Shown: positions 11,321 to 60,681 of the stretch, piece by piece | Position numbering within the stretch: position 1 is the first letter of the stretch | Layout of the letters: each line of letters begins with the position of its first letter | The notes under the pieces: model-generated | The model's input: only the letters and a program-made list of their open reading frames with translations | Told to the model about the DNA's origin: nothing | The model's database searches: none | Assembly: GCA_964658305.1 (NCBI GenBank) | Contig: OZ210885.1 | Span: 13,888,001-13,952,000, forward strand | DNA length: 64,000 nt | From: Leptogorgia sarmentosa | Taxonomy: Eukaryota | Direction: 5' to 3' | Made by a program: the position numbers and the translations under genes

Positions 11321-11411
11321 CACGAATGAAACTGCACAGTCAGCGTAATTTCACTAGCATTACTCTTTTAATAATATTGACTGAATAGCGAATAGTCACA
11401 ATGCGAAGGCC

Positions 11412-30912: not shown

Positions 30913-31012
30913 NNNNNNNNNNNNNNNNNNNNNNNNNNNNNNNNNNNNNNNNNNNNNNNNNNNNNNNNNNNNNNNNNNNNNNNNNNNNNNNNNNNNNNNN
31001 NNNNNNNNNNNN
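30913..31012. other. Assembly gap (100 N)
   Basis: Run of N; true size unknown. Confidence 1.
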
Positions 31013-32304
31013 TCGACTCTGGATATCACTCGCGATCAGACGGATATAATTCGAATAAAACTAACTCGAACATGAAATATACAAATCGATCGCGTTATGT
31101 TGATCAGCCGAATAACGTAAATATCCCTTCATCTCCCATGCCTCGCAAGAATCTATTTAACACTTTCAGTAAACCCGTCCACAGACAAGATATATATCGA
31201 CCAGCACCCGTTCATGAAAAAGAGGTCACTAACAATCAAACAGCTAACAAGTCGGACGAACCAACTCAGGAAGTAACGACTGAATCTCCAGCCACTCCAA
31301 ACCCTCCTCAATCCCTATCTCCCCCCAACACACCAAATCCCTCAACCCCTCCTCCCACATCACCCAATACCCTTACATCCCTCTCAAATTCCGATGATCC
31401 CCCTAAACCCTTAACAACCAACCCTTCCTCCCAATTATCCCATACCGAACTCCCACCCACCAAATCCTTACCTGCAAACTCAAAACCTCCTTCCTCTTCT
31501 TCAGCCTCCTCGTCTAAATCTAAAAAGAAAAAGAAAAACAAGAAAGTTAGTATTGACACCTCCCCTCCTAAATCAGTGGTGGACAATCCTGATGATCTGC
31601 TTGCTTCCTCCGATCCCGTCACAATCATTCCCTCTCCTCCTGTATTTGTCGTTTCTAAAGATTCTATAGATGGTGATATCAAAACAGAAATAGATCCAAC
31701 CTCACCAGAATATGATCCTCAAAATGACTCCTTTACTTCCCAACCTGATCCTCTTCCCATCGATTCCTTTGGACGACTTGCTCATACCATCAGAGCCGAA
31801 AGAATGGACATCCAAGGCACATGTCGCCTATGTCACGCTGAAGTCAAATCCCATCAAGCTGACTCGCATCTTCTGGATTGCAGAGGAATTAACCAAACTG
31901 ACACGGATGACTTTGCCTATGAATATGTGAACATTACAAATAACACTTATCAGAACGTTATATCGCTTATTTTAGATTATAGTGAATGCATAATGCATGA
32001 TGACGAACTTACGGCTATATTCAGTAATTTGTCTACTTCGCGCCAATTCTTCTCCGATCTTGAATCTTTGCTTGACCGCAAAGCTATTAAAATTTATAAA
32101 CAATTAGGTATACACGGTCAACAAAAACGATTTAACATTCTTCGATATGATTAATATCTCCATCTCTGTCCATAAATATTTTAGTGCGTAAAAGTCACTA
32201 ACTTATATTAATTGTCTTGATACACTATGTACATTAGTCTACTTACTAGCAACTATCTATCACCTGTAATCTTTTCACCTTGTTTTTGAATAAATTTGTT
32301 ACAA
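31013..32304 (+). mobile_element. U2-inserted protein-coding element A (5' part lost in gap), no RT in the visible part, Utopia-type 3' end
   Basis: Ends TTTTGAATAAATTTGTTACAA joined to U2 nt 39 (TCTGTTCTTATCAG), the same junction as the elements ending at 37416 and 56878. Confidence 0.88.
31015..32154 (+). CDS. Unknown protein, partial (>379 aa): DSGYHS motif, Pro/Ser/Thr-rich linker, Lys run, CX2CX11HX3C finger, helical C-terminal domain
   Basis: Open frame from the gap to the stop; C-terminal ~140 aa align by eye with the 35792-37270 protein. Confidence 0.85.
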   Translation, partial: DSGYHSRSDGYNSNKTNSNMKYTNRSRYVDQPNNVNIPSSPMPRKNLFNTFSKPVHRQDIYRPAPVHEKEVTNNQTANKSDEPTQEVTTESPATPNPPQSLSPPNTPNPSTPPPTSPNTLTSLSNSDDPPKPLTTNPSSQLSHTELPPTKSLPANSKPPSSSSASSSKSKKKKKNKKVSIDTSPPKSVVDNPDDLLASSDPVTIIPSPPVFVVSKDSIDGDIKTEIDPTSPEYDPQNDSFTSQPDPLPIDSFGRLAHTIRAERMDIQGTCRLCHAEVKSHQADSHLLDCRGINQTDTDDFAYEYVNITNNTYQNVISLILDYSECIMHDDELTAIFSNLSTSRQFFSDLESLLDRKAIKIYKQLGIHGQQKRFNILRYD

Positions 32305-34611: not shown

Positions 34612-35356
34612 TTATCCTCATCTAATTATTCTCATTTCCAATACTCAAAACTCACATTACAAATGTCGTCGAGCATGTGTCAGTATATTGACGAGACAAC
34701 AATTCCATGTATTCCTCACACTGGCGGCCGCCGCGTGTTTCACGAACACGTGTAACTCGATACTACATCGCGGTCATTCGAAACTAATACACAACCATGC
34801 AATCAATATTGGATTACTCACACCTTGTTGTAGGCACGTCACGTGGAATGAACGAGTGAGTCAATCCATACACGCGCTGCCAACCGATCGATCATGCATT
34901 TTATACTAGACTTATGTTAAACAACCATTTCCAATTCAAATGCACTCGTCATTTCTCCAACCGAAGCGCAACCGGACACGCTTCGTTCAACTCAATGCAT
35001 GTCGCTCATTTGCCATTCGCGAATCGGTCGCGAAGCCAGCGAATGGGAAAAAGCGCCACGTGCGCCCGCCAAAAAATCGCCAGAAATTCGTGGAGAACAC
35101 ACGTGCGTCGCGAGCAGTTTCGCGCGTGCAGCCGAATTAATTAGCAGCGCACAAACGATCGATTGTACGCGTCATCGTGCCGCGTGCCACAACGTTTGCG
35201 GCTCGTTTCGCTTGCGATTTCGCGGCGGCCGGGGCTGCTAATGGCGGCGCGAAGGAGGACCGCATTTTTTCACCTTGTCTTTCTCGCTTAAAAGATGGCG
35301 TGGAACGGCGAAGAAGGCATCGCTTCTCGGCCTTTTGGCTAAGATCAAGTGTAGTA

Positions 35357-37416
35357 CGCGACATTTTTGTCGGCAATTTTCGGCTCCGTAGTTTTCTTCA
35401 AATTTCTCCGGTTTAACTTGGACTTTTCGCTCTACAAATATCATAGAAGTGTTCCTAACGTTCTCGTGGTCATTTTGGTGGTTATTTGGCAAAGTTTGGA
35501 CAAGTATTTGCGAAGATATTAACATTTATCTACATCGAGTTACCGATCGCGTATTTCGTACGAAATTACATATCGAAAGTGTTGCGATTTGATCTTATTT
35601 CTGGTTTATATTCGTCAAGTAAGACATTGTTTTGTTCGCGATTCCTCCCTCTACATTTTGGTACACTTTTCATCCTGATCGGACATAAACTTTCGAAGAA
35701 ATCGCCGTCTTTCTCTTTGGACATTGTTTACAGTGCGTTAATTATTATAATTTATTCCACATCCATATCCGCTTTATATTCGTCACGTATTATGGCTCAT
35801 ACAAATGGAATTTTACCTATTCCGAGATCACCCAGTATAAAGAATGGTGTTCCTGCTGATTACATCAAGCCGTCCTATTATCCTGTCCCTTATCAAGCCG
35901 TCATAGCCATTGAGAACTGCAACATTGATCAATTATTATCTTGGGACATCAATGTCGCTGTGAAATCCATCAAGATCAAAATGGAATGGTCTCTGGCAAA
36001 TACATCCAATAACACTCTGAACAACTTATTTCCCAAATCTGTCTGCAACTCCATCTCGTCATATAACCTTGGTTCTCCCTCCTGGTCCTCCTCATTCGCC
36101 AACGACAAGTTATCTCTAAAAGTTGAATGGAAGATCAATGAGAACAAACCTGTTCCTGTTTCCCCTATTCCACCTACAAAATACTTACCTGCTCAATCAT
36201 TTGTTACCCCTTTTAAATCCAACCTTATGAATGATTCAGGCTATGGTAGTCCATATCTCAACACATCCACTCCTGCCACTAGATTAACCTTCAACTCTCC
36301 TTCCCCTGTTAAACATCGTCACGATGTTTACAAATCCCCTACTAACAAACCTTCCAAAACTATTGGTGAAAATGTGTCATTTACTTCAACCACAACAAAT
36401 TCATCATCCTCTCCTTCCATCGTCGCCTGCTCCAGTTCCAGTAATACCTCCATCTCCACTTCTCAACCAAAACCTGTTGTTGAAGGAGTTACCTTATCTA
36501 AATCACCTTCACCCTCAACATCAGCTATTACATCCAATCTCACTTCCACATTACCTGATCCCCCAGTCAACGATTCCTTAAACGATGACGAAGCCAGTAT
36601 TCAATCCGTTGCTGATTCATCAACCCAAACCATAACCTCATCCCAATTGAACCCCCCGCCCCCTCCCTCATCCCCACTTACCTCTTCTGAAAACTCCAAG
36701 TCCGTTCCTGATCCTCATCCTGATGTCGATCTATCCAAAATTAAATCGTCTGAGAAACCAAAATACACCGTATCCGACAAGTCCACTGAGAAAAATATCA
36801 TCCTCCGTCGCGATCCTCAAGTCGATCCCATGAATAGCAAGTATGTTAAAAAACCTAAGAAGATGCAGAAATCTGGAAAAAATAAATTCCTTGATCAGAA
36901 GCTTGATGCTGGTCGTATGGATATCGTCGGAAATTGTCGTTTCTGTGGTGAATCACTGTCCTCCTGTTATGCAGATTTTCACATCCTTACCTGCAAGAAA
37001 TTCGATGAGATGATTACAACAGAATTTTATGAACATTTAGCTAGATTAATATCAAATGGTGATCATTATAATATTGAAGGCATTGTATATAACTACTGCT
37101 TATATGAACTACATACCGCAGAGTACGATGTAAACGAATTTTTTGATCTTGAGTCTTTTAAATTATTTATCATAGAAATCGAACAGTTTTTGGACAAAAG
37201 AGCCGCATGTATGCTGAAATCTATTGGTCTCAGTAACCCAAGACGTTTTAATATTCTCAAATATCCTTGATTCTTCTCAACTTTGAACTTTTGATGTTTG
37301 ACTTTTTAGTCACTCATGAACACACATTTCTTAATTGTCTATGCTATAGATTACTCTTTAAACACCTAACTAGTGTAAAAATCCTGTAATTCTTGTTTTG
37401 AATAAATTTGTTACAA
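35357..37416 (+). mobile_element. U2-inserted RT-less protein-coding element B, 2060 bp, both junctions present
   Basis: GTGTAGTA|CGCGACATT ... TTCTTGTTTTGAATAAATTTGTTACAA|TCTGTTC; single ORF, no RT or endonuclease motifs, no TIR or LTR. Confidence 0.92.
35792..37270 (+). CDS. Unknown 492-aa protein (frame open from 35486): duplicated SW-x8-[IL]x[IL]K[MV]EW motif, DSGYGS, Ser/Pro-rich linker, CX2CX11HX3C finger, C-terminal RFNIL
   Basis: Uninterrupted ORF, first ATG at 35792; homologous by eye to 31015-32154. Confidence 0.88.
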   Translation: MAHTNGILPIPRSPSIKNGVPADYIKPSYYPVPYQAVIAIENCNIDQLLSWDINVAVKSIKIKMEWSLANTSNNTLNNLFPKSVCNSISSYNLGSPSWSSSFANDKLSLKVEWKINENKPVPVSPIPPTKYLPAQSFVTPFKSNLMNDSGYGSPYLNTSTPATRLTFNSPSPVKHRHDVYKSPTNKPSKTIGENVSFTSTTTNSSSSPSIVACSSSSNTSISTSQPKPVVEGVTLSKSPSPSTSAITSNLTSTLPDPPVNDSLNDDEASIQSVADSSTQTITSSQLNPPPPPSSPLTSSENSKSVPDPHPDVDLSKIKSSEKPKYTVSDKSTEKNIILRRDPQVDPMNSKYVKKPKKMQKSGKNKFLDQKLDAGRMDIVGNCRFCGESLSSCYADFHILTCKKFDEMITTEFYEHLARLISNGDHYNIEGIVYNYCLYELHTAEYDVNEFFDLESFKLFIIEIEQFLDKRAACMLKSIGLSNPRRFNILKYP

Positions 37417-38032
37417 TCTGTTCTTATCAGCTTAATATCTGATATGTTAGGCAATGTCCTAACTCATATATTAAACTGATTTTTGGACCTCGGCCATGGG
37501 ATTGAAGCTTGCTTCGCCCTGGCCACGGGTTGTCTCGGTATTGCACTACTTCCGAGTACGGCCCACTTCCCCCAATTTCATTATTGGGGGAAGATTTCTC
37601 ACTCATTATCAGTTCAAAAAAATTCTAACAAATTATTCTTGACTTTACAGATAGCTAGATCCTCGCCGCGAACCGGCATTTGGCAAGAGATACGTATATA
37701 ATGACATCATTATTCAGTGCCGATGACCGACGACGAACGAATTATGGTAAGCAGTCTAACACATTCATGTTATAATAGTCTTGGGTAGCTACTCGTTGGC
37801 CAACAAAGCTTAAGCAGCATCGCTGTTCATGAGATTAACATACTTTGATTTTTTTGTTAATTCCTATTGAACATGCGGGTCGAGAATTGTCGGAACGTGC
37901 AAACACGGTGCAGTCCGAGAGATCGATCGATCCATCTATACACAGACAGACAAACTCATCCCCATGCATTCGTTCCACAAGCATTCCTCGCCGTTGCAGC
38001 GTATAAAAGGTAATCGTATGCGCCATGAAGTC

Positions 38033-38929: not shown

Positions 38930-39379
38930 ACTCTAACTGTTGGTCCGAATCCTCTTTGAAGTTCTCGTGGTGAAAGAAGATTTGTGCTCGAGGTTCGTGT
39001 TTCGTGGATCGTGGTGGTTTGGTGCTGTCCATCCATTTCCAGTCCTGTGAAGTCCTGTTCAGTGTTGTCAAAGTCTGTTCCTGTTTCCTGTGGCTGTTTG
39101 CTGTTTGTTCGTGAACCCTGGTCCTTGGTCTTGGTTTTGCGTTTCGTGTTTGTGCCCGTTTGCGGGGCCCTCTAGGGGGTAACGCTAAGGCGGTGGCCTT
39201 TTTTCCTTCTTTTTGTTGCGTCTGTGGTCAGGTCCGCCTGATCTCCTTGTTCGTTCTAATCTTTTCCAGGAGCAAGTGGTTTGTTCCTTGTGTGTGAAAA
39301 AAAAAAAAAAAAAAAATAGATAGGACTCAGTTGAAACAATTAGGCCCGATTTAGGTCTTACTGTTATTTGTAGTCAAAT

Positions 39380-40843
39380 ATGATACCCTATGTCAATAGG
39401 ACAGTGGATGTTATTTTGTCCACTCAATTGGAAGCGAGGGATGTCAATGTCCGTGAGGTCATTGACGAACTCAAATCACAATTTAATGGGTACGCAGACA
39501 TATTTGAAGCTGTAGTGCTTGTGTCTCCCGGTACTTACCGGATTACATGTAAAAGTTCCCGTAAGCTTGAGCTTTTTGAGGCTGCGGGATTTTTTGTTAG
39601 GGGTCTGCCTGTTGAGGTCAAGCCCATTAACTCGTTCAAGTGGGTTAACATCTCTAGGTTATCCTACGGGGTGCCAGAAGATGCTGTTCGTGCGGCGTTA
39701 GCCCCATATGGAGACATTCGTCTCTTCAAATTAGAAAAATATTCCAATATTTACACGGGTGTGCGCCATGTTTTGATGGAAATACGCACTGAGATCCCTA
39801 CCCGCATTAGGGTTGCCGGCCATCATTGTGTGGTCCATTATAAAGGGCAAAAGCGTCCCTGTTTTTCTTGTGGACTAGTTGGACACTATACTGATAAGTG
39901 TCCGACCAAATCGGCTCCAGGGGCTGTAACCTCTAAGGCTAGCACGTCAGCTGAAGGGGGGGCCACCGTAGAAGTCCACTCGGGGCACTCATATGCGTCT
40001 GTTGTTACCAGTACGGGGACTGCTGTTACTAGTACGGCGGCCGTTGTTACCAATACGGCGTCTGAGCCCGTTGTTACGTCCTCTCCCATTATTACATCTG
40101 TTTCACTGGAGAGGTCGGCACCTGTTAACGTTCCGACTGAGGTACCAGAGGTGCCTGACGTTGCAGGTGTGGTTAGTGAATTGCTAGCCTCGGTTGCCAG
40201 GGAGGGTTCGGCTCCTGCAGTCGACCCCTTGGCTCCCATGAATTTGGTTGTGGAGTCTTCGGCGCTTGGAGTAGAGCCGACGGTTGTCATTCAGGAGCCT
40301 GGAGCTCCAGTTGTTGAGCCTCCGGCTTCCGGTGTGGAGCATATGGAGGCATCCGTTTCTGCTCTGGGACCTGCGGAGGTGGCTTTAGCCGCCCGTACCC
40401 CATTACCAGGTGGTGATGAGGTTGATACGGACATACCTCCATCAGCGGAGAGTCCCTCATTCAAAGGGAACAAACGTTCCCGGCCACGATCTCTCACCAG
40501 GTCAAATTCGCGATCTCCCATGAGAAGGGATAGGCGTAGTTTGTCTGAGTCCTCTGGTGACTCGGCTCGCGATGATGACTCGGATGGTATAGGTGTACAG
40601 GGTAGGAGTCGGGGGCGGCAACGCCGTCCCGCGACCCTGTCAACGCCTCCTTTTTCTCCTAACATTATTCCCGCCTCATCGACTATTGATTCTAGGACGT
40701 CCTCTTTAACTCAGTTCACCCCGAACCTGCCTTGTGATACACAGGATAGGATTAACTTTGCCGGACCGGAGGTCTCCTCCGATGAATTTTCTTTTGGAGA
40801 TACAGGAATGTCTTCTGCATCTCTCGCGAATGATTTCGCTTAA
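39380..40843 (+). CDS. Tx1 ORF1p (RRM-like region plus CCHC zinc knuckle)
   Basis: CFSCGLVGHYTDKCP knuckle preceded by L..YG.I / TGVRHVLM..IP..I pattern; disordered C-terminal half. Confidence 0.9.
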   Translation: MIPYVNRTVDVILSTQLEARDVNVREVIDELKSQFNGYADIFEAVVLVSPGTYRITCKSSRKLELFEAAGFFVRGLPVEVKPINSFKWVNISRLSYGVPEDAVRAALAPYGDIRLFKLEKYSNIYTGVRHVLMEIRTEIPTRIRVAGHHCVVHYKGQKRPCFSCGLVGHYTDKCPTKSAPGAVTSKASTSAEGGATVEVHSGHSYASVVTSTGTAVTSTAAVVTNTASEPVVTSSPIITSVSLERSAPVNVPTEVPEVPDVAGVVSELLASVAREGSAPAVDPLAPMNLVVESSALGVEPTVVIQEPGAPVVEPPASGVEHMEASVSALGPAEVALAARTPLPGGDEVDTDIPPSAESPSFKGNKRSRPRSLTRSNSRSPMRRDRRSLSESSGDSARDDDSDGIGVQGRSRGRQRRPATLSTPPFSPNIIPASSTIDSRTSSLTQFTPNLPCDTQDRINFAGPEVSSDEFSFGDTGMSSASLANDFA

Positions 40844-40903
40844 CTTGTCTTGTTAGCTCTTTAGTTTATATTGAGTTTTCAGTATTGCCAATACATAATC
40901 TTG

Positions 40904-43900
40904 ATGGCTACCAATTACAGCGAATCATCGTGTTCTTTGTCTCTGATATCTTTAAATTGTCAAGGATTTCGAGATAGTTTTAAGCGTGCTGCATTTTTTT
41001 CTTGGTTAGCATGCGTGAAGGCAGACATCGTCTGTCTGCAAGAGACTCATGCCACCTCTTCAGAGGAGTTTTCATCTTGGGTTACATCCCAGTCCGACTC
41101 AGGTAATAATTCGCTAAGATATTCGGTGGTCTCTTCTCCTGGTACTGTTCGGAGTCGTGGTGTGGCGGTGTTGTATCGCCCATCATTGCGTGTGGTTCAG
41201 CAGTATGCCGATTCCGAAGGACGATTACAGGTCGTTCAGTTTTCCTGTGTGGCTAGTGAGTCGTCCTCATTTCAGGTTGTTAACTTATATGGCCCTAATC
41301 GTAAAGTCGAAGGGGAGGCCTTTTTCGAGGCGGCTGTCCCTCGCATTGAGGCGGCAATGTCTACCGTTGTTTGCGGTGATTTTAATACCGTGGTCAATCC
41401 TGATCTTGATCGCCGAGGTTGTAATTCTTCTTCCCCTTGGGCATATAATTGGCCAACATCTCTTTCTGTGCTTACGTCGCATTTTAATCTCGTCGATGTT
41501 TGGCGGGTCCGGCATCCAGATGCTCGAGAGTACACTTGGCATCGGGCGAATGGGTCACAAGCATCTCGTCTTGACATGTTTTGGGTGTCGTCTGATCTTG
41601 TGTCAGGGGTGAGGGACGTGGAGATTTATCCGTTTTTCCGTTCTGATCATTCATATGTGTTTTTGCATGTCAATCTCCCCAGCTTGCCTGATAGGGGTCC
41701 GGGGGTTTGGAAGTTCAATACTTCCCTTTTAGCAGATGCGGAATTTGTTGCTCAGGTGCGCACATTTTGGGCTAATTGGCAAGAGGAAAAGGCTGATTTT
41801 CCCAATCTCGCCGTTTGGTGGGATGCGGGCAAGAAAAGATTGAAGCGTTTGATGCGCCGTTATTCTCGCGAACGCGCTTCGGCTCGTCGGGCTCGTCTTA
41901 CGTCACTTGAGCGTACATTGTATCACCTTAATCGTCGTGAGGGTAACGGGGAGGATGTGAGTCAATTCATTGCTGACGCTAAGGCTTCGATTGAGGCGGA
42001 GTATTCACATCAAGCTCAGGGTGCTCGGTTGCGGGCCAAAGAGCAGTGGGCAGAAGAGGGTGAGACGTCCTCAGCATACTTTTTCCGTCTTGAAAAGACT
42101 CGGTCGCTTCGGCGGCTTTTTACTGGCATTCGTAATGCCCAAGGCGTAGTTGTGCGTTCCATCTCGGCCATCATCCGGGTCTGGTGTATTTTTTATGTCC
42201 AGTTGTTTACCGCTGCGGTTCTCTCCCCTAGTGACCAAGATTTCTTTCTGGAATCTTTGGACTCTACTCTGTCCGATCGTGAGGCTGCTCTCTGTGAAGG
42301 CGTTGTGACTAATGCAGAGTGCTTGACCGCTCTCAAAGGATTTGGCCGGAATAGGTCTCCTGGTATCGATGGGCTTCCCTATGAGTTTTATTTGTGCTTT
42401 TGGGATGTGCTCGGTGATGATTTAGTGGACGTCTACAATAATTGTATTACTCGCGGGTCCTTATCGTTTTCACAACGCACGGGTCTTATCACTTTGCTGT
42501 ATAAAAAGAATGATAAGTTGGATACTAAGAATTGGCGTCCTATCTCACTGTTGTGCACGGACTACAAGATTCTTGCGAAGGTTCTCACGAATCGTTTGAA
42601 GCCTGTTTTGTCCTCCGTTGTGTCACCTTCTCAGGTGTGCGGTGTACCAGGTCGGTTTTCTGGGGCACACGTGCGTCTGCTTCAGGATGTGGTTAATTTT
42701 GCCAATATGGATAACATCGGTGCGGGAATTGTCTCCCTAGATCAGGAAAAAGCGTTCGATCGCGTGGATTGGGCGTTCATGTTGAAGGTGCTGAAGCGGA
42801 TGAACTTCGGCTCGTCCTTTTGTGCCTGGGTACAATTATTGTATACCGATATTTTTTCCCGCGTGATGGTCAATGGGTATGTTAGTGAGGGTTTTAAGGT
42901 TACCCGTGGTGTCCGACAGGGATGTCCTTTGTCTCCGCTGTTGTATATTCTTGTGGCTGAAACCATTTCGGCTGCTATCAAGAAGGATCCCGCGATTGAC
43001 GGTTTCTCTTTGCCAGGTGGTGAGAAGGTGAAGATTTTCCAGTATGCAGACGATACCAGCATACTAGTCCAATCGGATCAGGCCTTGCAGGCCTTGTTTT
43101 CCTTGTTTGAACGGTATGAAGCAGCATCGGGTGCTAAGCTCAATGTTGCAAAGAGTCATGGTCTGTTGGTTGGCGCCTGGAAGCAGCGAGTGGACTTACC
43201 AGTTGACCTGAATTGGTCGAATGATTTTATCACTGTCCTCGGGTGCCGGATAAGTAATGCTAATCAGGTTGATTGGCACTCTTTGTTGGAACGGTTCAAT
43301 AGCCAATTGGTGTTATGGAAGCAGCGTCAGTTGTCATTTCGGGGCCGTGCATTAATTGCCAATGTATTAGGGTTGTCCATTTTTTGGTATCAAGCCACTA
43401 TTTTCGATGTACCTAAGACCGTAATTCATGCCATCAATAAGATCCTCTTTCCCTTTGTGTGGGGTAAGAAACGGGAATGGATGGCTCGTACCTCTGTCAC
43501 GCAACCTGTAGCCCAAGGTGGGTTGGGTGTGGTTGATGTGGCTCGTAAGATTTCGTCCTTGCGGGCGGTTTGGTTCCGGCGCTATCTCTCGCACTCGCCG
43601 CATCCTTGGTCGGTCTTTTTTAATTATCATGTGGAGGCAGTGTTTCATGTTCATCCGACTGCGGTTTTGAGTCGGGATTCCGTTCTCGCATATTTGATCA
43701 AGAGGCTTCCGGCCTTTTATGCCTCGCTTCTGCGGGTGTGGGCTGACCTGCATGGTAGGAAGGAGCAGGGTATCTGGGTGATCCCTCGTCCTTCTGGGGA
43801 TCCGTTACCTGTGGCTGAGTTAACAGCAGCCTTGGGATACTCGTTCCTCTCGAGACACCAGGTTGTTGAACATCGTTCTGTGGCTAAATTCCGCGATTGG

Positions 43901-44473
43901 GGAATTGGTGTTAGTTGGCCGTCTGTGTGGGCCAGTCTTCGTTTGTGGCGCTTTGTGCGTTCTGTTCAAGATACTGCGTGGCTGACATTCCATGGTATCC
44001 TTCCTACTTCTGATCGTCTGGTTAGGTTCGGCATGAATGTTAACCCCGATTGTTTTTGTGGCCTTCCTGAAGATCTGCTTCATCTCTTTGCTCGATGCCA
44101 GGTTGCTCGCGACGTTCTTGACTGGTTTGTGTTGCGGGTTCAAGCTTCATGTCCTTCTGTCACTTCTCTTTCTCTTTCCGACATTCTCTTTGGTTTCTCT
44201 TCTGCTTCTCCGGTTCCTGTAGTGTATAATGCTTTGCTTGGTATTCTACGTCATCAGATCTGGCTTAGTCGCAACAGGCAGCGGTTTGAGGGTATTGACC
44301 CGGATGTCGCGGTGTTGTTGCGTAAGGCAAAATCCACCTTTCGTTTCCTTGTTCGAATGCACAAGCGCCAGTGTCCACGCCAACGGTTTATTGAGGATTG
44401 GCTTGCCAACGGTAATGTTGGTCGACTTACGGATGAGGAGTGGATTCACTTTTCTCGTGATTTTGTTACTTGA
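40904..44473 (+). CDS. Tx1 ORF2p: AP endonuclease, reverse transcriptase, C-terminal Cys/His motif
   Basis: SLNCQG, LQETH, GDFN, RLD, SDH (APE); WRPISLL, LDQEKAFDRV, GVRQGCPLSP, QYADD (RT). Confidence 0.97.
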   Translation: MATNYSESSCSLSLISLNCQGFRDSFKRAAFFSWLACVKADIVCLQETHATSSEEFSSWVTSQSDSGNNSLRYSVVSSPGTVRSRGVAVLYRPSLRVVQQYADSEGRLQVVQFSCVASESSSFQVVNLYGPNRKVEGEAFFEAAVPRIEAAMSTVVCGDFNTVVNPDLDRRGCNSSSPWAYNWPTSLSVLTSHFNLVDVWRVRHPDAREYTWHRANGSQASRLDMFWVSSDLVSGVRDVEIYPFFRSDHSYVFLHVNLPSLPDRGPGVWKFNTSLLADAEFVAQVRTFWANWQEEKADFPNLAVWWDAGKKRLKRLMRRYSRERASARRARLTSLERTLYHLNRREGNGEDVSQFIADAKASIEAEYSHQAQGARLRAKEQWAEEGETSSAYFFRLEKTRSLRRLFTGIRNAQGVVVRSISAIIRVWCIFYVQLFTAAVLSPSDQDFFLESLDSTLSDREAALCEGVVTNAECLTALKGFGRNRSPGIDGLPYEFYLCFWDVLGDDLVDVYNNCITRGSLSFSQRTGLITLLYKKNDKLDTKNWRPISLLCTDYKILAKVLTNRLKPVLSSVVSPSQVCGVPGRFSGAHVRLLQDVVNFANMDNIGAGIVSLDQEKAFDRVDWAFMLKVLKRMNFGSSFCAWVQLLYTDIFSRVMVNGYVSEGFKVTRGVRQGCPLSPLLYILVAETISAAIKKDPAIDGFSLPGGEKVKIFQYADDTSILVQSDQALQALFSLFERYEAASGAKLNVAKSHGLLVGAWKQRVDLPVDLNWSNDFITVLGCRISNANQVDWHSLLERFNSQLVLWKQRQLSFRGRALIANVLGLSIFWYQATIFDVPKTVIHAINKILFPFVWGKKREWMARTSVTQPVAQGGLGVVDVARKISSLRAVWFRRYLSHSPHPWSVFFNYHVEAVFHVHPTAVLSRDSVLAYLIKRLPAFYASLLRVWADLHGRKEQGIWVIPRPSGDPLPVAELTAALGYSFLSRHQVVEHRSVAKFRDWGIGVSWPSVWASLRLWRFVRSVQDTAWLTFHGILPTSDRLVRFGMNVNPDCFCGLPEDLLHLFARCQVARDVLDWFVLRVQASCPSVTSLSLSDILFGFSSASPVPVVYNALLGILRHQIWLSRNRQRFEGIDPDVAVLLRKAKSTFRFLVRMHKRQCPRQRFIEDWLANGNVGRLTDEEWIHFSRDFVT

Positions 44474-44951
44474 TGTTGGTTGGTTGTTCTTTGGTGATGT
44501 TCGTTAGTGTTGTCCATGTTGATTGTTAGCCTGACGATGCGATGGTCGCCTTAGCTGGTTGTACTGTCGTTGTCTGACGGAGTCCTTTTTTGTCCTTGCA
44601 TCTTTAATTTTTGCCCTGTGGTTCACTTGGGTTCTGCTCGGGTGGGTTGCACAGGTTTTCCAATGTTTTCGATCTGGTTGAATCAGTGGGGTTGCTGCTC
44701 ATGTTGTCGCCATCTAGTTAACATCATCCTCTAACTGTGTCATCATCATAGGTTAGGGATCCCTGGGCGTGATGGTGGTTAGCATCGGATCGCTCAGGCC
44801 ATTCATGGTTGCATCATGGCACGGGGGAGGGGTTCATGACCCCTGAAGGTCCGCGTCACCTGTAGTGACCCCCCTGAATGCGGCGATTGCACCGGGTTCA
44901 GGCTCCATTGCACCGTCGGAGTCGAGAAGCTCGTCGTCGTACAATTCAAAA

Positions 44952-44968: not shown

Positions 44969-45407
44969 CGCACGCACGCAGGTTCACGCGCGAGCGGGCT
45001 CTGCAAAATTCAATAAATTTTTGTATTAAATTATATCTAATCAATCATACCAACACATCAAACTACAACCTCGGTCCCAGGGTCTTGATCCTCGCTCGCT
45101 CCCGCTGAGGAGAGACCCTGGTTGCGGCTGGTCACGTGGCACCCAGATTTTGGGTGCTTAATTGGTTTGTACACTTAGGGAGGGGTGGTAGAGGAGAGTG
45201 TGTTTATTGTGTTTGAAATTTCCATAAATCAGGTTATAAATCATGAAATCATGAGTACATTGCGCTCATAAAATTTTTCGAAGAAATCGGATATAACACT
45301 ATTGCTATTCAATTACATAATTAAGTCATGACCTCGAACAAAGGAAGCATCAAATTACATTTTATATATGGGATTGGTCAAAAGGTTACTTATTCAGTTC
45401 TGGCTCG

Positions 45408-48400
45408 ATGGCCACTAGCGGAGGCACGCCGAAAAAATTCTACCAAAGTACATCTGTATCGACGGTAATCTCGCGTTGCAGACTGTGTTATTCTGTTGGG
45501 GATCCAAAGCATTGCAAAAATTTATTTGGGGCTGCGAATAGAGCAATTTTACGCAACGCTGAAAGTGTTTACGGGAGTGAGTTGCCTTCAAGTATCGAAC
45601 ATCCGCACTTGATTTGTCGGCCATGCGAAAGAAGGGTGAATACTGTCATTCAGTTTAAGCAAACAATTGGCGAAACGCAGAGAAAATTACGACAAGAAGT
45701 GCGTGCAAAACGTTGTGTCGACTTATCGCCATCCGTCGCTAAACCTGCCCCTAAAGTTCGAGCTACAGCTACTGAGAAATCACGTCGGCGCACTCTCGAT
45801 TTTGGTGGTGAATCGGAAAGTGCGAGGGAAATTGTAAGTCCTATATTATTGTCTTTCCCTTAGTATAAATATGTTTATTCAAACTTGTTAACCCAAGATT
45901 TTGAATTTTTCCTTGTGGAATATTGAGCGCTGTTAATGAGTGCATAGCCGCATATGAATAATTCATTCATATTCATGAATGAACCTTTGTGTAACAATGG
46001 TTTCATTCATGACTCAGTGTGTGACCGACTGTGTGTATTAAATTTCAAAGCCTTTTAATACTGACCCTAATATTCAATGTGGCCGTGTAGTCTGAAATTA
46101 TATCACACAGTTATAATACATTTCACTCACAAGACGTCTTTCATTTGAAGCGAGCTCCAATACATAATTATATATTCATGCCTAAAATTGATTTAAAGTA
46201 AAATGTTTATTTTTTTCATGTCTCATGACATATTAGTCACAATTGTAGAAAAAAACAATTGGTAGCTTGACCTTCAAATGTGCAACCATTAATGTCAAAT
46301 CTTAACAAATTAGTCAAAATTATCACATTACATATTCTATCAGTCAGGATCAAAGTCTGAAGGGAGACTCACCTCCCTCTGCCCTGTTCCCCATTTCCAT
46401 GCATCCCTGTCCATACCAATTAATAAACTGATACATGCACAAGGTGCAATGGGGCAACATGAAAATTACTTGTACTATACAACACCAAATTGAAAGAGCT
46501 ATGCTGATATATTTGCAGACATATCGGCACATAGTTACTATATGTGGAACTGTAAATCCAATTCTTGAGTCCAAGGATGCTTCAGGAGGAATAGTTTCTA
46601 TACTATAACATAGTTATATATTTTTATTTTAAAGAATGGTGAGGCATTGGTGAGGGCAAATAAAGAATTAATTGAGGTTGCCAGACGAAGTGAATCATCT
46701 GTTCTACGGAAACGATCATATGATGGTTTGTCAGCAGAGGGATGGATTTCAGAGGTTTTGGAAGAGCTAGCAACCAGATGTCCAATGGTAAACAAAATCC
46801 TGAGATCTCTGGTGGAAAGCAGCATTTACCCAGAGAAGAAAAATCCTGTTATCTGCTTAATTTATGGCATTGTAATGTTCTTGCGGTGTCATGAATTAAG
46901 TAGGATTCAAAGGATAAATTCTGTTCTGTTGATAGAAGGACATGCATCTGTGGATGTAAGTACCATAATTATTTGAATTTATAAGTGCTTCTCTCAAATA
47001 AACATTGAAGGGACAAATAAATACTGTCATTGTGTTCACATAATTTTTTTGTACTACTTTTAGTTGATTTCTCGTCTGAATAAGTTTGGTATATGCCTCG
47101 AGCCAACAAAGAAATATCCAATACTAGATGACATTGGCAAACATTTCATCGATCGTGCAGCTGAGTTGGTGAAGTCCGGACATAAATTTGTTTATGTTCT
47201 GGACAACATCGACTGGGAGGAGAAGGCACACGACATGAGGCAAAATATTCAAAACAGGAGTGTTCATGCTGTGGCAACAAGTATTGTATTCAACCGTGTT
47301 TCTGACCAAGGGTTGCCCGATTCTGGTCCTCAGCAAAGTCTGAAGGATTGCAATGTCCACCAGCTGGTAGATATCAGTCCTCTGGAGTTGGAGGCAATCC
47401 GAAGCCGGTATAGAATACTTGTTGCCAAGCTTTTGTTTGAACACTTTCCTGCGTTTGAAATGTTCATGCCTCATGTTGCTACGAGCACCAAGTCAATGAA
47501 TGACAAAGAAATGTCCACCAAGTCTGAAGTGTTGACCATGCCCATCATGATGAAGGACGAAAAAAAATATTCAGACTGTGTCGATGTTTTGGACCAACTC
47601 GAGACATGGACACATGAAATATACACAGCCGCTGGGTTATGTTCCAAACAGCCAGAATCAGCAAATGACACCCCACCCACAATCATGACGACATCCAGAC
47701 CCGACCAGCCTGCATCTCATATTCCACCTGTTGAGTCACAAAACGATCCCCTGCGAGGAGTCAAGATACCATGCTTTGGTGACCAGCTCACAAGGGTGCG
47801 ATTTGCTGGAGCAAAAGATCTGAGGGCAGGATGTCACTCAGCCAAGCAAAGATTGGATCACTTATACCCATTTTGCATTGTGGACTGGCATACGAAGAGA
47901 AGTTTCTTAAAGGTATGAAAAACATAAATAACTGCAATACAGTGTGTACACCAGTTTGGCAAATCTCCATGTCATAAATGTTCTTTTATTTTCTATTCAA
48001 TTGCTGTAGCATAAATATATTGAAAATGTTACAGTATTTCCTGTCTTTCTCATATATTTTGAGTAACAACACTGTAAAACTGGTGTAGATCCCAGCAATT
48101 GGTGATGCATATATAAAGCATATAACCCAACTATATTGGAAAGAGAAAAGTAATTCTCTTTCAGCTACAGTACCTTGGAAACAGGATGTTTGTAACATTA
48201 TGATTTATTTAATATGGTAATATGTTTCTTTTCTTCAGACTGTATACAAGAAACTATACAAAAATTCTGGAAGAGAGAAAGGTACCCTGCGATTCTTCAG
48301 AGAAAAACTCAATCGGAGGAATGTCACTGCTGATGTGAAGCACTATGAGGATTGTGAGCAGCTGTTTTTCAGTGTTGGGAAGTGTTTTGTCATTGAAGCC

Positions 48401-49264
48401 CTTTTGGAATTTTTCCAAATGGACAGCACAAAACACAAACCAACAGCGAACAATCCTCATAGTGTTGAAGTTCTAACAGAAGAGTACCGGAAACAATACA
48501 TTACCAGCATGCTGGATAAATTCATTGACGAATTTGTTTTCATTGGTGGAAATGGAGAGGTCGCAGACGGTGTTTGGAGCTATTCTGTCAATGTCATCAA
48601 ATGTTTTTTAATATTGGTTGACTTTAAGGATGCAGTCTCCACAGGCAATGGTGAGCACCTGCTCATCCTAAGGAAACAGTTGCTGCACCATTTCTTTGCC
48701 TCACCTGGCTTCAATGAATTTTCAATTGAGATGCTGATCAACATTCTGCAAAGCAAAGTGCTGCTATCAGAAGCAGAGGCACATCGCTGCAAATGGGCAG
48801 CTACAGTTAATTGGAAAGGCGGTGCCGGAAACAACATCGAGATTGACTTGTTCCAAGAGAACAGAAATTGTGAGATGAAGAAGCTGATCAAAGCAATGGG
48901 TGCAAACAAAACAGAGCAAGCTATTTCTAGAGCAAGCAAGGCATCTGGAGGTGTGACAAATATTGTTGATGCATTTGAGCATCAAGTAAACATCCACCAG
49001 AAATCTTCCAGACACTCACACAAGTCATCGGTCAGTGATGAAGCAATCATTAACAAAGATTTGAGAGACTTAAGGCCATTCAAGAAGGATGATGAACGAT
49101 CATTTGAATCCTTTAAAGGGATTTCCCATGACCCCACCCACACATTGAACAAGGAAAAGTTCAGAACCTGGATGTCACGGCACAAGAAAAACCTCTTGAT
49201 GCACTTTCCAGTGATTGGTGACACTGAAAATGAGCATGAAGAAGAGGTGTTTGATATGGATTAA
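45408..49264 (+). CDS. Academ-type transposase, spliced: 45408-45833, 46635-46955, 47064-47912, 48239-49264 (~873 aa; an extra small exon in intron 1 is possible)
   Basis: GT-AG phase-0 introns; N-terminal CRLC...CRPC zinc finger; VLDNIDW, FGDQLT, DWH and IDLFQENRN motifs. Confidence 0.82.
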
Positions 49265-50410
49265 GTGGAACAATAAGAGATGTATGCACTGTAATGTGTA
49301 AGTTAAAAAATATATTGCTACTTAAGGTTCCTGCCTTGCAGAAGGCAATTGCACTTATTGCTCTTGTTCCTACCACCAAGCCTTGCATTGATGCAATATG
49401 TTTTCAAAATGAAGGTTGTTGGTAAAAACAATAGCCTTATGAAACCTGAATAAGTGCTATTATTAAACAAGTAGGCTTTATATCAATTTATTACTAAACT
49501 AATCATGATGATTAATAGCATATGTTTTGTGCATTCTTCAAACATACTGCAGTCACAAAACTAGCTGCAAATTTTAAGGTGCATTTTAAGATGAATGTTG
49601 CATATATTGAATTTAGTCAAATGTATTTAAACTGTTTGGCAGTAACTATATGATAATATAACAGAAAGGATAATGATACCAATTGGTCAAACAATATTTT
49701 TTTAAAATTAAACTAGTTTCTATTGCACATAGTACATGCACTGTAAAAATTTTCATAATCACATTGATAGGTATGGACACAAAATGCACAATGGTATTAA
49801 AATGTAAAAATTGTATTGAAGTTATATCCATAAAATTACAAGTACTGTAAATGTTAAAATACAGTACACAAACTGAATGTTTAGTCAGTTGTTTATTATT
49901 CAAACACACATCCATCCCCTACACTTGAGTTGGCATGGCTGTCAAAATTATTGTAGAGCCCTTCTAAGAGAAACACTTGATAGCAGGTATTTATTATAGG
50001 CTACAGCATATTTGTTTTGGACACTCACTTTACATATATATCCGTACTCATGCATGTACTTGCATTATTATTATATGAAAGAATTTGTAGATTCTGATTG
50101 GCTAGCCCTCATGTTTCAAATCTATGGTCGCATCATATGAGCGTTTTCATTTATGTTATGACATCAACTCGTGATGAAGCAGGAATGTAAAACAACACAA
50201 ATGGCTTCCTCAAATATGTGCTACAACCTAAATTCTTCCATTGTTTCAAATAATAATAAAACTTAATATCAATTTTGACTTTCACAAGATATGAAGAATA
50301 AGCAAGCCTCAGTTTGTCATTCTCGACCTCATTATTATAATAATTGGATTACTGCATGTGGAAATGCCTTCAAAGTGTTTTTGCTACAACAGTATACAAC
50401 CTTACTAAAC

Positions 50411-51994
50411 TTACAAGTTCTCCATATCAAGTGATAAACACTCGAAGCACGTACAATCATTTTCACAAACATTACAACAAACATGCAATGGCTTTATCAA
50501 AATATCCTGTTCATAGTCCATTGACTTTAACATCAATTTTCTTAGGCATTGATTGTTACTTGAGCAGAAATGACGCATATCATCCTGCATGCCCACTCTA
50601 TTTTTTGCAATATCCCGGTTGTTATAGTACAAGCAAGCCCATGAAGGATTGCCATCTCTCCCAGCACGTCCAGTTTCTTGCATGTAAGCTTTTACTGTAG
50701 TTGGAGGTCCAATATGTACAATGTGGCGAATATTTGGTATGTCCACACCCATTCCTAAAGCAACTGTTGCAAAAATTACCCGAACAATGCTTCTTCCTGA
50801 ACAGAGTTGTTTTAGGATGTCATCCTTCATTTGGGATGTTTGCGGAGCATGAAATTGGGCAAACAGGCGATTTTCAGGAATTTTGTCAGAGCCAAGGGGA
50901 AAGTACTGCTCAGTACCAAGGACATACTCGAACAACTTGTACGCAAATCCACAAAATTTTAATGGGATATACACAATTGTTAATGGATAGTCGATTTTCT
51001 TCTGCAGAAGGCCCATAGCAATTGGTTCCAAGATTGATGGAATTGCATCAACATCTTGCCCATCACGAAAGACCTTTTTATAAAAAATATTCTTTCGATC
51101 AGGATTGGCAATGATGGATTTGCAATTTTTTAACCCCAACGAATTCTGGATACACCTGATATCTGCCTTATTAGCCGTGGCAGTCATTGCGAGAACCGGC
51201 ACGTCTGGAAAATATGCACAAAGCACTCCTAACTTCCCATAGTCTGTTCTAAAGTCATTTCCCCTGCAATAAGAAACATGTATTATGAACCTTCAGCAAC
51301 ATGCTAGCAAAATATATATGAATTGGTGACTACTGGTATATTTTCATACCTGCTTTTTCATATATAGATATATACCTAATTTACCTATGTTATAAGAATA
51401 TCAAATATTTTTTACTTACCAATCCAGTATACAATGAGCTTCGTCTATGACAATGGCAACAACATTTTCCTGGTAGTTTTTGTTCAATAACAACTCCCGT
51501 CCATATTTAGTGGAAATTAACGATTCTGGATGCGCAAAAACTAGATGGTAATGACCAGCACGTAGTTTAGCTTCTTCGCAAAGACGGAAATCAACATCGT
51601 GTTCAATATTTTCTTCCGAATCAACGTTGCTTTGGTGTTGTCTCGTGATAACATCTATAACCGACGCTCGAATACCACTCGCATATAAACGGGCAACTTG
51701 GTCACTTATTAAAGAGTTTAATGGGGACACAACCATAACAATCGACGAAACTGTCGTGGCAGCAATATCTTTTGACTTCCAACTACAAATTCTGCCTCTC
51801 ACAAACAACAACATTGGCAAAAGATGGAAAACCAATGATTTGCCATAGCCCGTTGGCAAAACACACATTACATCGTTTTGCAAATACATGCTCTCGAGGC
51901 AAACAACTTGCTTTGGTTTAAAAACAATCTCATCGTAGAAGCTATTTAAAACAGCAAACTCCAAGCACGATAAAAAGACAATGTAATCCAGCAT
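50411..51994 (-). CDS. RecQ-like SF2 helicase, exons 51994-51420 and 51263-50411
   Basis: LPTGYGKS, VSPLNSL, DEAHCILDW|GNDFR across the splice, MTAT, ATVALGMGVD, QETGRAGRDG, C-terminal Cys cluster. Confidence 0.93.
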
Positions 51995-52723
51995 GGCGAA
52001 CGCGATAAGAAAAGTACGCCAAGTGGAAACATGTAACATGACACTCTCCCATCACCCCCTAAGGCAGCTAATTATTCGCCAGTCACGTGACCAGCCGCAA
52101 CCAGGGTCTCTCCTCCCCTTGGGGTTATGAGGAGAGAGCCTGGGTACGAGGTTGATCAAACTACTCCTAAAGACGTGTAGAATCATCTACTGGTGTTTAT
52201 CTTGTATCAAGACATCGATCTCATCTTGTTTTTGGATTTATTGTTTTCCGCATTGTGTTTACATTTACATCTCGTACGCTACAAACGGGTTCAATTTAAA
52301 CTTTTGGTCATATCTTCTCTCTGGATAACTCAATCATCGTGGAAATTCCTATGTGATCTACAATTCTCTGTATTAAACGTCTGTAAAAGTTTCGCGTCGT
52401 CAAATCGTCCCTACGTAAAGTTATTTGGATCCCTTTCATTGTGACCGTTGGAAATTATTTGAATTTTTGAATATTAATTAAGTCCCATACTCGGCCCGTA
52501 TTCCGCTTATATCTCTGGTTCAACGCAAGATATCCACTCATAACTTGGCTATTATATTCCTATTCTGGTCTACAACACCTCTACCAAGTTGGACGCTGGA
52601 AACTTTATTATTTCCTGAGATATTTATTATCTACGTATCGTACTTTAATCCCGGTTTATTAATTATTGTATCCTGTCGTCGCCCGTCAAATGTGGGGATT
52701 TCCCTAATTCGTCTTATTGCGTA

Positions 52724-55700
52724 ATGCCTTCGTGGGAATGCTCAGATTGCGACTTCATTGGCAAATCAAGTCAAGGTCTCGGTGTCCATCGCTCCAAGAA
52801 GCACAATTGTAAAAACAGTTCATTCCCTAACGTGAAGTCCGTATCTGTTGTTCGTGAATACCCCGAGAACAGAAGTTTCTATTGTTGTTTATGTAACTCT
52901 ATCGTACTAAACTATAACCATCTAAGCCGTCACTTTAAAAACCTTCACCCGGCAATTAACCTATCATCATCTGCAAAATGCTCAATATGTGGTAAGCTCT
53001 TCTCTAGCGGTCAAGGCGCTGGTGTCCATATCAATAAATCTCAATGTGGGAAAACGAAGTCAGTAAAGATCAATGATGAACCCATCATGTCATACGCGAA
53101 ATATCACGATGAGGATTCCATTGTTACCACACCACAATCCACTACCAACAGCAATCCCATCATTACCTCAACCCAATCCCAACCCACACAAGCCCCCTTT
53201 TATCTCGAACCAGTGGTCGTCTTAGTTGATTGTACTGCTGTGAACAGACCTCCTTCCACAAACCTCACCACTCCTCCCCCTCCCTCCCCTTCGATCCGTG
53301 AAACTCCCGCACCCTCCATATGTGACCTCCCATCCGAGGACTATGATGACCCAGATATTTCCTTCGATATTCCCTCCCCTCTACATGCTTCCCAATTCCT
53401 TTCCCAACCATTTCCTTCCCACCCTAGCAGACCTTCCGTTTCCCCATCTCAACAAAATCCTCGCCCTACCTCCCAATCCTCTCCCCAATCCCCTTCCCCT
53501 ACACTCCCTCACACTCCCTCTCCTACCCCCCTCATCCACCCCTTTCCTGACCCATCCCTTCCATCAAGTTCTCATCCATCCTCTGACCCCTCCCACAATA
53601 TCCCTATGTCCCCTCCCGCTGATGCCTTACCATCTACACCTTCGACAGATCCCTCCTCAAGTGATACGCCTAACTCATTACCCCCGAACCATCCCAATAA
53701 CCCCTCAGATGTCCAATCCGAGTTCTCAAACAAATGGTTAGCTACATTCTCCACAAATTCCAACTGGGACGACTTCTCCAACCAATGCTATAACTTCGCA
53801 AGTGATGTCATCCTGGAGAGTGATAAGAACTTTGATCTTAGGAAGAAAGCTGCACCCCGACGTAACAACCGCCCATCTGCCAGACCTATCAATGCCAACC
53901 GTCGTCCGCTCAAATACAACCCTATCGAAGCCCGTAGAATCCAACGCTTATACCGCCTCTCTAAGAAGCGTGCCGCCAGACAAGTAATAAGCGATAATAA
54001 ACCATCCTACACTGGCTCGGTCGATGAAGCGAACCATTTCTTCCAACAGGTCTTTGGTGAAAAAACTGTCGACGCTGATGCAGTCCAACAAGGTCTTAAT
54101 GACAACGTTCCATCTGGCCCTAAAGATCACTCCCTCTATGATCCCATCACTCCTGATAAAATTGCCAAAAAACTCCGCTCCCTTTCTAACTCCGCTCCCG
54201 GTGCTGACCGAGTTGAATACAGACACCTGAAGTCCGTTGACTCCAAAGGCGAAGTACTCTGCGCCATCTACAACCGGTGCTTAATAGAAAATGATGTTCC
54301 TTTGAAATGGAAATCATCTCGGACAGTCCTGATCCATAAGAAAGGTGATGCCGCCGACATTTCCAACTTTCGTCCCATAGCCCTGATGAGTTGCATTTAT
54401 AAAATTTTCATGAGTATCCTGGCCGACCGTCTGGTCACCTATTCCATCGACAACAACTACCTGTCCAACTCCCAAAAAAGCGCTCGTCCCACCGAAGGAT
54501 GCTACGAACACACCTTCATCCTGCAATCACTTGTTCTTGATGCCAAAAGACACCAAAAGAATCTCTTTGTTGCTTGGCTCGATCTACGAAATGCCTTTGG
54601 TAGCGTTCCCCATGAAGTCATCTCCCTTACCCTATCCCACCTTGGCGTGCCTGATCCCATCGTAAACCTGGTTAAAAACATCTACACCAACGCCACAACC
54701 GAAATCAACACTCCTGCAGGAATAACTCCCGGCATTCCCATCCATGCTGGTGTCAAACAGGGCTGTCCGCTATCACCCATTCTGTTTAACCTATGTATTG
54801 AGATCATAATCCGGGCAATTGCCTCAAAGGGACATGACACCGGTCCTGTTAAACACTACAATGGTGAAATTTCTGTCTTGGCATATGCTGATGATTTGGT
54901 CCTCCTCGCTAAAACCAAGGACAAACTCCAACTCCTCCTTGATGCAGCATCCACCTCTGCCAACCTCATCGGTCTTGATTTCCGTCCTGACAAATGTGCC
55001 TCCCTAAGTATGACTTACAGCAATAGATGTGATGGCAACATACAAATTAACAACCTAAATGTTCAAGACAAAGCCATCCCTGCTCTAAAAGAACACGAAC
55101 ATTATCGGTACTTAGGAGTTCCCATCGGTATGATCCGCGACGTCGACAATCTAGACTCTCTGGTTGATGACCTCTGCAACGACCTCGACAGAATCAGTAA
55201 CTCTCTTCTCGCCCCCTGGCAAAAACTGGACGCCATTCGAACTTTTGTGCAGCCTTGCCTGACATTCGCTCTCCGTGCCGGCGAACCACAAAAAGCGTCC
55301 CTAACCAAGTACAGAAGGAAACTCATCGAAGTTGTTCGATCCATCTGCCACCTACCTCTCCGTGCCACAACCCATATCATCTTTGCCTCAACAAAAGCAG
55401 GTGGCCTAGGCTTTCAAGACCCATATGATGAAGTAGACGTCCAAACGGTGGTCCAAGCAATCAAAATGCTTTCCTCCAAAGACCCCTTTGTCTCTGCCGT
55501 GGCCATTGGTGAACTCAGACGAGCGGTCACCTTCGCAATACAATCAGATGCGTCCCCTGCTAACATCCGTGACTTTCTTTCCGGATCCACCCAAGGCAAA
55601 TTCCACCACTCACGCATGCGATACCGTACCCACTCCCTATGGACCCGAGCAAGACAAGCATCCCATCGCTTAGGCTTAACTTTCAACGTCCCTGACAACG

Positions 55701-56500: not shown

Positions 56501-56878
56501 ACACTGAACAAACATTTACTCGTAATTCCATAGCCTAAATACTCCTCACTTGTAAAAAGTATAATCCCATTCTTTGTGTGCCTTCTGTATTCATATAACA
56601 TGAAACATTAGTATAACAAAATTAGTTCTTAGTCAGCCCACAATCAGTAGTAAAACAGCACATCCGTAAACATAGTACAGCAAACTAGTTCCCGAAAACA
56701 TTCGTCTCAGAATTCTTAAGTTAATTAGTACTCAGTTATCACGTACATTACGTCACATATAACATATATATATATATAGTCATTTAAGGTATTCTAATAA
56801 CTATGTCATTAGTATCTCATGAATAACTACGTCATCAATGTAAATAACTATTTCTTGTTTTGAATAAATTTGTTACAA

Positions 56879-58368: not shown

Positions 58369-58395
58369 ATCGCTTCTCGGCCTTTTGGCTAAGAT
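58369..58395 (+). pseudogene. RNU2: U2 nt 1-27, interrupted by Tx1-b
   Basis: ATCGCTTCTCGGCCTTTTGGCTAAGAT then foreign sequence. Confidence 0.95.
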
Positions 58396-58428
58396 ATTCT
58401 GGCTGTTGGTGAAGAAGATCACGCTAAA

Positions 58429-58500
58429 AGAAGAAGAAGAAGAAGAAGAAGAAGAAGATAGAAGAAGAAGAAGACAGAAGAAGAAGACAAGAAGAACGAA
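58429..58500 (+). repeat. (GAA)n tract in Tx1-b 5' UTR
   Basis: Directly visible. Confidence 0.9.
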
Positions 58501-59266: not shown

Positions 59267-59297
<31 letters not shown>

Positions 59298-59315
59298 TTT
59301 ATAAAAAGTCTTAAA

Positions 59316-60674: not shown

Positions 60675-60681
60675 TTTTTCA

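Follow-up and report, generated by a model that had tools for sequence, protein, structure and literature searches.

How was a 2-kb insert that encodes a protein and no reverse transcriptase (RT) placed into a U2 snRNA gene, at the very site used by an RT-encoding element in the same gene array? The best reading, to which we give a probability of roughly 70%, is that this insert (element A) belongs to an old, multicopy, RT-less family at U2 nt 38/39 that is copied in trans by Utopia and carries its own conserved protein. The sequence-only reading of the locus had also proposed an RT-less, gene-carrying partner of Utopia. Insertion site, tail, a second family member (element B) and codon bias support that proposal, and we infer mobilisation in trans.

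Array setting and structure of element A

The 64-kb window (the whole stretch of Leptogorgia sarmentosa DNA analysed here) holds a tandem U1-U2 snRNA array with a period of 1526 bp, at which it is near-identical. There are 17 U1 and 18 U2 matches, 13 of the latter at full score, and several interrupted U2 copies lie toward the right end of the array. The U2 units flanking A match an empty unit at 97% identity, which indicates that the array is undergoing homogenisation. Non-U2 DNA lies directly before U2 nt 39 at three positions in the window (32305, 37417 and 56879), and the three different inserts found there (B, A and Utopia) carry the same tail. The leftmost U2 copy (11400–11587) is missing its normal 5′ end and forms the array boundary; a (TAAC)n microsatellite of ∼220 bp is found at 2070–2290.

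Element A is complete, spans 2060 bp on the forward strand (35357–37416) and is inserted without a target duplication. Its flanks are U2 nt 1–38 (35319–35356) and U2 nt 39–193 (37417–37571), both on the forward strand. Excising 35357–37416 in silico leaves a U2 gene of 193 nt that differs from an intact array copy by a single mismatch, so the earlier claim that A splits U2 precisely at nt 38/39 holds. The target duplication is 0 nt for Utopia as well as for A.

The element begins with a 435-nt leader on the forward strand (35357–35791) that contains no ATG, against 6.9 expected (5 of 5000 shuffles); ATGs are also missing from the leaders of the autonomous elements. The ORF that follows (35792–37270, forward strand) encodes 492 aa without an RT or endonuclease. 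It had been described as a single intact frame lacking RT, endonuclease and transposase motifs, and a Pfam search with the A and B proteins agrees, returning no match at E 0.1. After the ORF comes a 146-nt trailer, which closes with a 30-nt tail (37387–37416, forward strand) that contains AATAAA and is identical to the end of Utopia at 29 of 30 positions. There is no poly(A) at the end of A, and no Rfam ribozyme family matched the element.

The reading frame of the ORF also stays open for 111 codons upstream of its ATG (35459–35791; 7 of 5000 shuffles). N-terminal extensions are called in 14 of 72 homologues, and the listed variants in this upstream stretch comprise nine silent and 11 non-silent changes and no stops. 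A non-AUG-initiated, extended form of the protein is possible.

The resident Utopia and its neighbours

The likely helper family is represented by a Utopia-type RT-RLE element at U2 nt 38/39 (44969–56878, forward strand). Its single intact ORF (52724–56500, forward strand) encodes 1258 aa with three N-terminal zinc-finger patterns, an RT (Pfam RVT_1, E 1e-33), a CCHC finger and the RPD..D motif of the RLE. This Utopia layout of zinc fingers, RT and RLE is absent from A. By tblastn the helper is 34–37% identical to RT-RLE elements at U2 nt 39 in three loci from our wider searches (L023, L055 and L061). Its putative assignment to Utopia follows from this layout and from a 3′ flank like that described in PMC4640811. 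The sequence-only reading was right that a Utopia element occupies these coordinates, but most of the 11.9-kb span is a nested 7.1-kb DNA transposon (45066–52154, no strand assigned), which sits in the helper's 5′ leader and is no part of the satellite. The transposon has terminal inverted repeats, a 9-bp duplication, and ORFs for zf-AD, DUF6589 and a helicase. It is present in the only helper copy seen.

The U2 gene that houses the helper is interrupted by a Tx1 element as well, at nt 26 and flanked by a 5-bp duplication. Two different two-ORF Tx1-type elements follow U2 nt 26 in the window (38930–44951 and 58395–64000), whereas Keno is reported at nt 38/39. The first of them, whose two ends both lie in the window, has a 5-bp duplication and a different tail.

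According to the available text of the Utopia paper (PMC4640811), Utopia is placed in the NeSL clade of RLE elements, has U2 nt 39 as its 3′ flank, makes no target duplication in its arthropod families and can be present as several families per array; Keno uses the same U2 site and has an identical 3′ flank. A and B have in common with Utopia the flank at nt 39, and A also the lack of a duplication; neither A nor B encodes an RT or RLE. The words ‘autonomous’ and ‘coral’ do not occur in that available text, and its host table lists no cnidarian.

A second, deeply diverged member

Element B (31013–32304, forward strand), which the sequence-only reading overlooked, is a second member of the family. 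A 100-N assembly gap at 30913–31012 has taken its 5′ part and 5′ junction. The remaining open frame (31015–32154) carries the DSGYHS motif, the finger and the C-domain described below. The A and B proteins are 29.9% identical over 174 aa (E 9e-20), and their DNA has little in common beyond the tail. B's tail differs from that of A and Utopia by a one-base indel, matches Utopia at 25 of 26 positions and leads directly into U2 nt 39. Two deeply diverged ORFs thus carry the helper's present-day tail at the helper's site. This U2 context is seen for two copies, both in the window, and for B at its 3′ side only. A segment of B's trailer (32213–32238) is 77% complementary over 26 nt to the Utopia leader (52189–52214), which may be chance.

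Sequence and codon bias in common with Utopia

The exact common suffix of A and Utopia is 27 nt, as originally noted; 29 of the last 30 positions match, and 31 of the last 40 (blastn E 1e-7). The common CGC start that had been cited alongside is present, but at 3 nt it carries no weight. Beyond these ends the two elements had been said to have no visible similarity. Comparison by tblastx largely agrees, giving weak hits only (best E 0.05) that are mostly low-complexity or tail, although weak similarity may reach beyond the 27 nt. B and Utopia have a further 17-of-19 match ∼60–80 nt from the end, a score reached by 40 of 2000 shuffles. Upstream of the tail, 17 and 40 of 2000 shuffles reach the B–Utopia similarity and 47 and 186 reach that of A and B; for A and Utopia the counts are 1120 and 1680 of 2000. 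The leaders of A and Utopia (with the nested transposon removed) form a weak, colinear alignment that is significant with permissive gaps only: under five scoring schemes, 1, 216, 37, 196 and 9 of 1000 dinucleotide shuffles do as well. We take this 5′ similarity as a hint. Given the 17-of-19 match and the weak leader alignment, the very small (27-nt) cis signal proposed earlier is doubtful, and the RNA signal that is recognised may exceed 27 nt. Inspected by eye, and without a shuffle control, the terminal 150 nt at the 3′ ends of the three elements have no obvious fold in common.

The three elements also resemble each other in codon usage. G occupies 11 of 230 fourfold-degenerate sites in A (4.8%), 18 of 186 in B (9.7%) and 54 of 626 in Utopia (8.6%); the corresponding values are 21–25% for four neighbouring Tx1 ORFs and 18% for the DNA transposon. 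Neither A nor B differs significantly from Utopia (p 0.06 and 0.66, respectively), and both differ from the three other elements tested (p ≤ 0.007); the pattern persists when Pro, Ser and Thr codons are left out. In 11 U2 RT elements from other organisms (seven Utopia-like and four Keno-like ORFs), fourfold-site G is 16–40%. Because the Utopia-like ORFs of other organisms are not G-poor, we read the bias as specific to this Utopia lineage. The simplest reading of the G-poor codons is a replication bias common to A, B and Utopia.

A conserved two-domain protein family

The protein encoded by A consists of an N-domain, a DSGxxS motif, a Pro/Ser linker and a helical C-domain with a C2HC zinc finger. 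The N-domain (aa 1–122; 35792–36157, forward strand) is conserved, with two alpha-beta-beta units predicted at low confidence (pLDDT 60). The sequence DSGYGS (aa 148–153; 36233–36250, forward strand) fits the DSGxxS consensus of beta-TrCP degrons (PMC2287288). The C-domain (aa 319–492; 36746–37267, forward strand), likewise conserved, ends at the stop codon and has a C-x2-C-x11-H-x3-C finger at aa 382–401, followed by predicted helices.

An exhaustive HMMER profile search of 1.84 billion representatives gave 58 hits, the longest of 690 aa, so that no relative is big enough to contain an RT. Searches with the C-domain returned four and 11 clusters, and the N-domain search 36 clusters of 252–649 aa without a Pfam domain. 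Both domains are present in 72 proteins of 417–690 aa, and in 68 of these no more than 10 residues separate the end of the C-domain from the stop; the family therefore does not represent the N-terminal part of an RT protein. All named members are hypothetical proteins of the octocoral Paramuricea clavata.

Across the family, conservation holds for the two domains but not for the linker. A DSGxx[ST] sequence follows the N-domain in 83 of 89 proteins, compared with 1% in shuffled linkers, and 115 of 119 have the C2HC finger; these counts include near-duplicates, so the proteins are not independent. The family alignment contains a second short conserved linker motif after DSGxxS, around D178–Y180 (HDVY-like), and 13 of 72 linkers have a basic patch.

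Pfam searches with 50 homologues gave no match at the cut-off. Among PDB sequences the best E was 1.5, with the LYAR finger at E 2. Foldseek returned nothing at E 0.001, the ESM Atlas had no match at 0.9, and a wide fold search peaked at Z scores of 4.2 and 5.5, on models with pLDDT 60 and 70. Such blank family and fold searches do not establish a new fold.

The pattern of variation shows A's ORF to be under selection. None of the three indels listed for other samples falls within it, and 40 of the 142 difference rows yield 18 differences within it, of which 10 are silent and six of the other eight fall in the linker.

Copies, subfamilies and module exchange

The family is present as multiple copies and subfamilies. 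Besides A and B in the window, there is an ∼83%-identical subfamily in two public sequencing runs (X2 and X7) that differs from A at 113 of ∼670 bases. A or part of it is contained in 13 of 17 rows from such runs, spanning four studies and two organism labels; none of the listed runs that contain it is an RNA run. In a comparison of four, contigs from three runs and two studies (X2, X7 and X10) continue from the ORF through the last base of the tail. X2 and X7 also contain another element with the same 30-nt tail. Three loose ends of A (35530, 37030 and 37158) continue into non-U2 letters absent from the window; these may be 5′-truncated copies or sister subfamilies, and some copies may lie outside U2.

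Homologues elsewhere are single ORFs on genomic contigs. Many are broken, and some occur several to contigs of the same size: 15 long-contig sizes recur among family proteins, one of them, 14,975 bp, with three proteins of 538 aa. Here a common contig is deduced from equal size alone, and some pairs may represent the two halves of a single broken gene. Thirty contigs shorter than 10 kb contain both domains; 24 of them are at most 2.8 kb, 229–1218 nt longer than the ORF, and five have at least 3 kb beside it. The short contigs fit a free-standing unit bounded by repeats, with the caveat that no contig can be shorter than the ORF it carries. Metagenome, viral and prokaryote contigs, scanned at the protein level, gave no relative. 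The tail-plus-U2 pattern was found zero times in the genome contigs searched, and a relaxed AATAAA-plus-U2 pattern gave 112 loci (43 of 64 parts for the metagenome), 49 with true U2 downstream and none with either domain.

Trees of the N- and C-domains from 25 proteins disagree at well-supported branches. P0002 and P0024 are 95% identical in the N-domain and 33% in the C-domain, P0020 and P0041 82% and 31%, and P0023 and P0036 50% and 87%. Four AU tests on 19 of the 25 tree rows gave p values of 6e-6, 8e-10, 0.04 and 8e-48, for pairs picked after the trees had been seen. N and C modules have been swapped between lineages. That exchange in the linker is frequent fits well with template switching, or with conversion between copies that lie in clusters.

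Origin and mobilisation

A is not an internal deletion of the Utopia ORF, as the sequence-only reading had argued: no relative is RT-sized, the divergent second member has the same tail and site, and the codon bias is common to A, B and Utopia. Nor does A fit the build of an R2 SIDE, with helper ends and no ORF, since its ORF is intact and its 5′ similarity to the helper is weak and dependent on scoring.

The strongest competitor, in our estimation still improbable, is that A and B are HAL1-like, ORF1-only derivatives. Their protein would be the ORF1 of an unseen two-ORF autonomous element, A and B having lost ORF2; mobilisation would still be in trans, but with a protein that belongs to the helper lineage. 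This is how the known protein-coding non-autonomous LINEs arose (PMC5786205), and in five of the 30 short contigs another ORF could be accommodated. However, 24 of the 30 end near the ORF, the resident Utopia has one ORF, and the profiles of both domains are blank in Utopia and in two Tx1 elements (best E 6). The colinearity of the A and Utopia leaders, which suits such a derivative with permissive gaps (1 of 1000 shuffles), is gone under strict gaps (216 of 1000). A separate insert, L009:727–3443, may be an independent ORF1-only element at the site; its open frame of 650 codons has three CCHC knuckle-like motifs and no RT match, and is followed by a 770-nt trailer ending at U2 nt 39.

Less probable again are one-off chimeras, in which the Utopia RT jumped from its own 3′ end to mRNAs of a host family and array turnover spread the products. 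The R2 RT does jump between templates in vivo (PMC3414825), homologues are known without flanks, and the 97% identity of the units around A to an empty unit would fit such turnover. Yet two jumps would be needed, at nearly the same point and onto paralogues 30% identical, and the scenario sits poorly with single-ORF homologues, many of them broken, with swapped modules and with a Utopia-like codon bias.

We regard a Keno-type Tx1 element as an unlikely helper in place of Utopia. Its reported 3′ flank is identical to that of Utopia (PMC4640811). Five loci (L041, L049, L062, L013 and L037) hold Keno-like Tx1 elements at U2 nt 39, and in L041, L049 and L062 the tails resemble the Utopia tail of the window, AATAAA included, plus an A run. 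Since Keno uses the same site and these Keno-like tails are similar, part of the tail match reflects polyadenylation constraint. Those Keno-like ends nonetheless carry A runs, whereas A has neither poly(A) nor a duplication and matches the resident Utopia at 29 of 30 tail positions; its codon G fits Utopia rather than Tx1 or Keno-like ORFs (17–26%), and the window has no Keno at nt 38.

Very improbable is an ancient insertion spread by U2-array DNA recombination only, its tail kept by conversion from Utopia junctions: the near-identity of the array and the module swaps, which could be conversion, would allow it, but the codon bias in common with Utopia argues for one and the same enzyme having copied them repeatedly, and the internal loose ends fit 5′-truncated copies, though unproven.

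Proposed mechanism

We return to a family copied in trans by Utopia. In the sequence of events that we consider probable, A would be transcribed by Pol II into a polyadenylated RNA, likely and plausibly from the upstream U2 promoter. Pol II promoters lie upstream of U2 genes, and R2 is a known case of an element transcribed together with its target (PMC4494074). The AUG-free leader would permit translation of the ORF. The Utopia RT-endonuclease would then bind the Utopia-like 3′ end, nick U2 at nt 38/39 and copy the RNA of A in trans by target-primed reverse transcription. Template switching or conversion among array copies would swap the N and C modules.

The role of the protein is a more tentative matter. 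At rather less than even odds, it is a short-lived accessory factor that would engage SCF-beta-TrCP via DSGxxS, either under the control of that ligase or acting upon it. The C2HC finger would serve as an interaction module, and the protein would favour expression or copying of its own RNA. Alternatively, it may be an ORF1-like RNA chaperone. Satellite viruses carry their own accessory gene, and we draw the parallel for A. It is conceivable, if rather less than an even bet, that A represents a new satellite class, helper-dependent and site-specific, which parasitises an RLE retrotransposon by way of a short 3′ signal, has kept its own non-retroelement gene across dozens of recombining lineages and engages SCF-beta-TrCP as a counter-defence or timing device.

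Relation to known systems and significance

The sequence-only reading held that non-autonomous partners are usually non-coding; protein-coding cases are in fact known. HeT-A, HAL1 and Ag-Sponge lack an RT, encode one protein and need an autonomous partner, and their protein is described as the ORF1p of a Jockey, L1 or CR1 parent (PMC5786205). The helper of A, in contrast, is a single-ORF RLE element, and the protein of A is unmatched in the helper, Pfam, PDB and solved folds. What appears to be new, on these comparisons, is an encoded protein that is not the helper's. R2 SIDEs are also non-autonomous partners of a site-specific RLE element, at their helper's site in a multicopy RNA gene, and are described as a 5′ ribozyme joined to a 3′ end (PMC3414825). 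A differs in being 2 kb long with a conserved ORF, in matching no ribozyme family and in having clear helper identity over only ∼30 nt. The crocodilian SINEU is, like A, non-autonomous and linked to snRNA genes, with transcription from flanking sequence proposed; it has U1/U2 sequence as its head and is linked to Tx1 (PMC4494074), whereas A inserts into U2 and encodes a protein. Mainly open-access literature, judged from listings and with Repbase and Dfam outside its scope, gave no RT-less coding partner of Utopia.

Inserts of ∼1.1 kb in the U2 of another organism (L003:113–1193 and L070:86–1187) have neither an RT match nor a long ORF and carry a 14-nt target duplication. Their last ∼90 nt are ∼77–81% like the RT-RLE elements L055 and L073, and they are apparently non-coding Utopia satellites.

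If the trans-copied reading is true, A would be a natural case of RLE delivery of a 2-kb coding cargo to an exact site in a multicopy gene with little common sequence, and would bear on the template rules for R2-like insertion tools. It would also add a family of unannotated proteins, long kept under selection in a parasite that itself exploits a parasite, and it raises the question of why a non-autonomous element retains a gene that its helper lacks.
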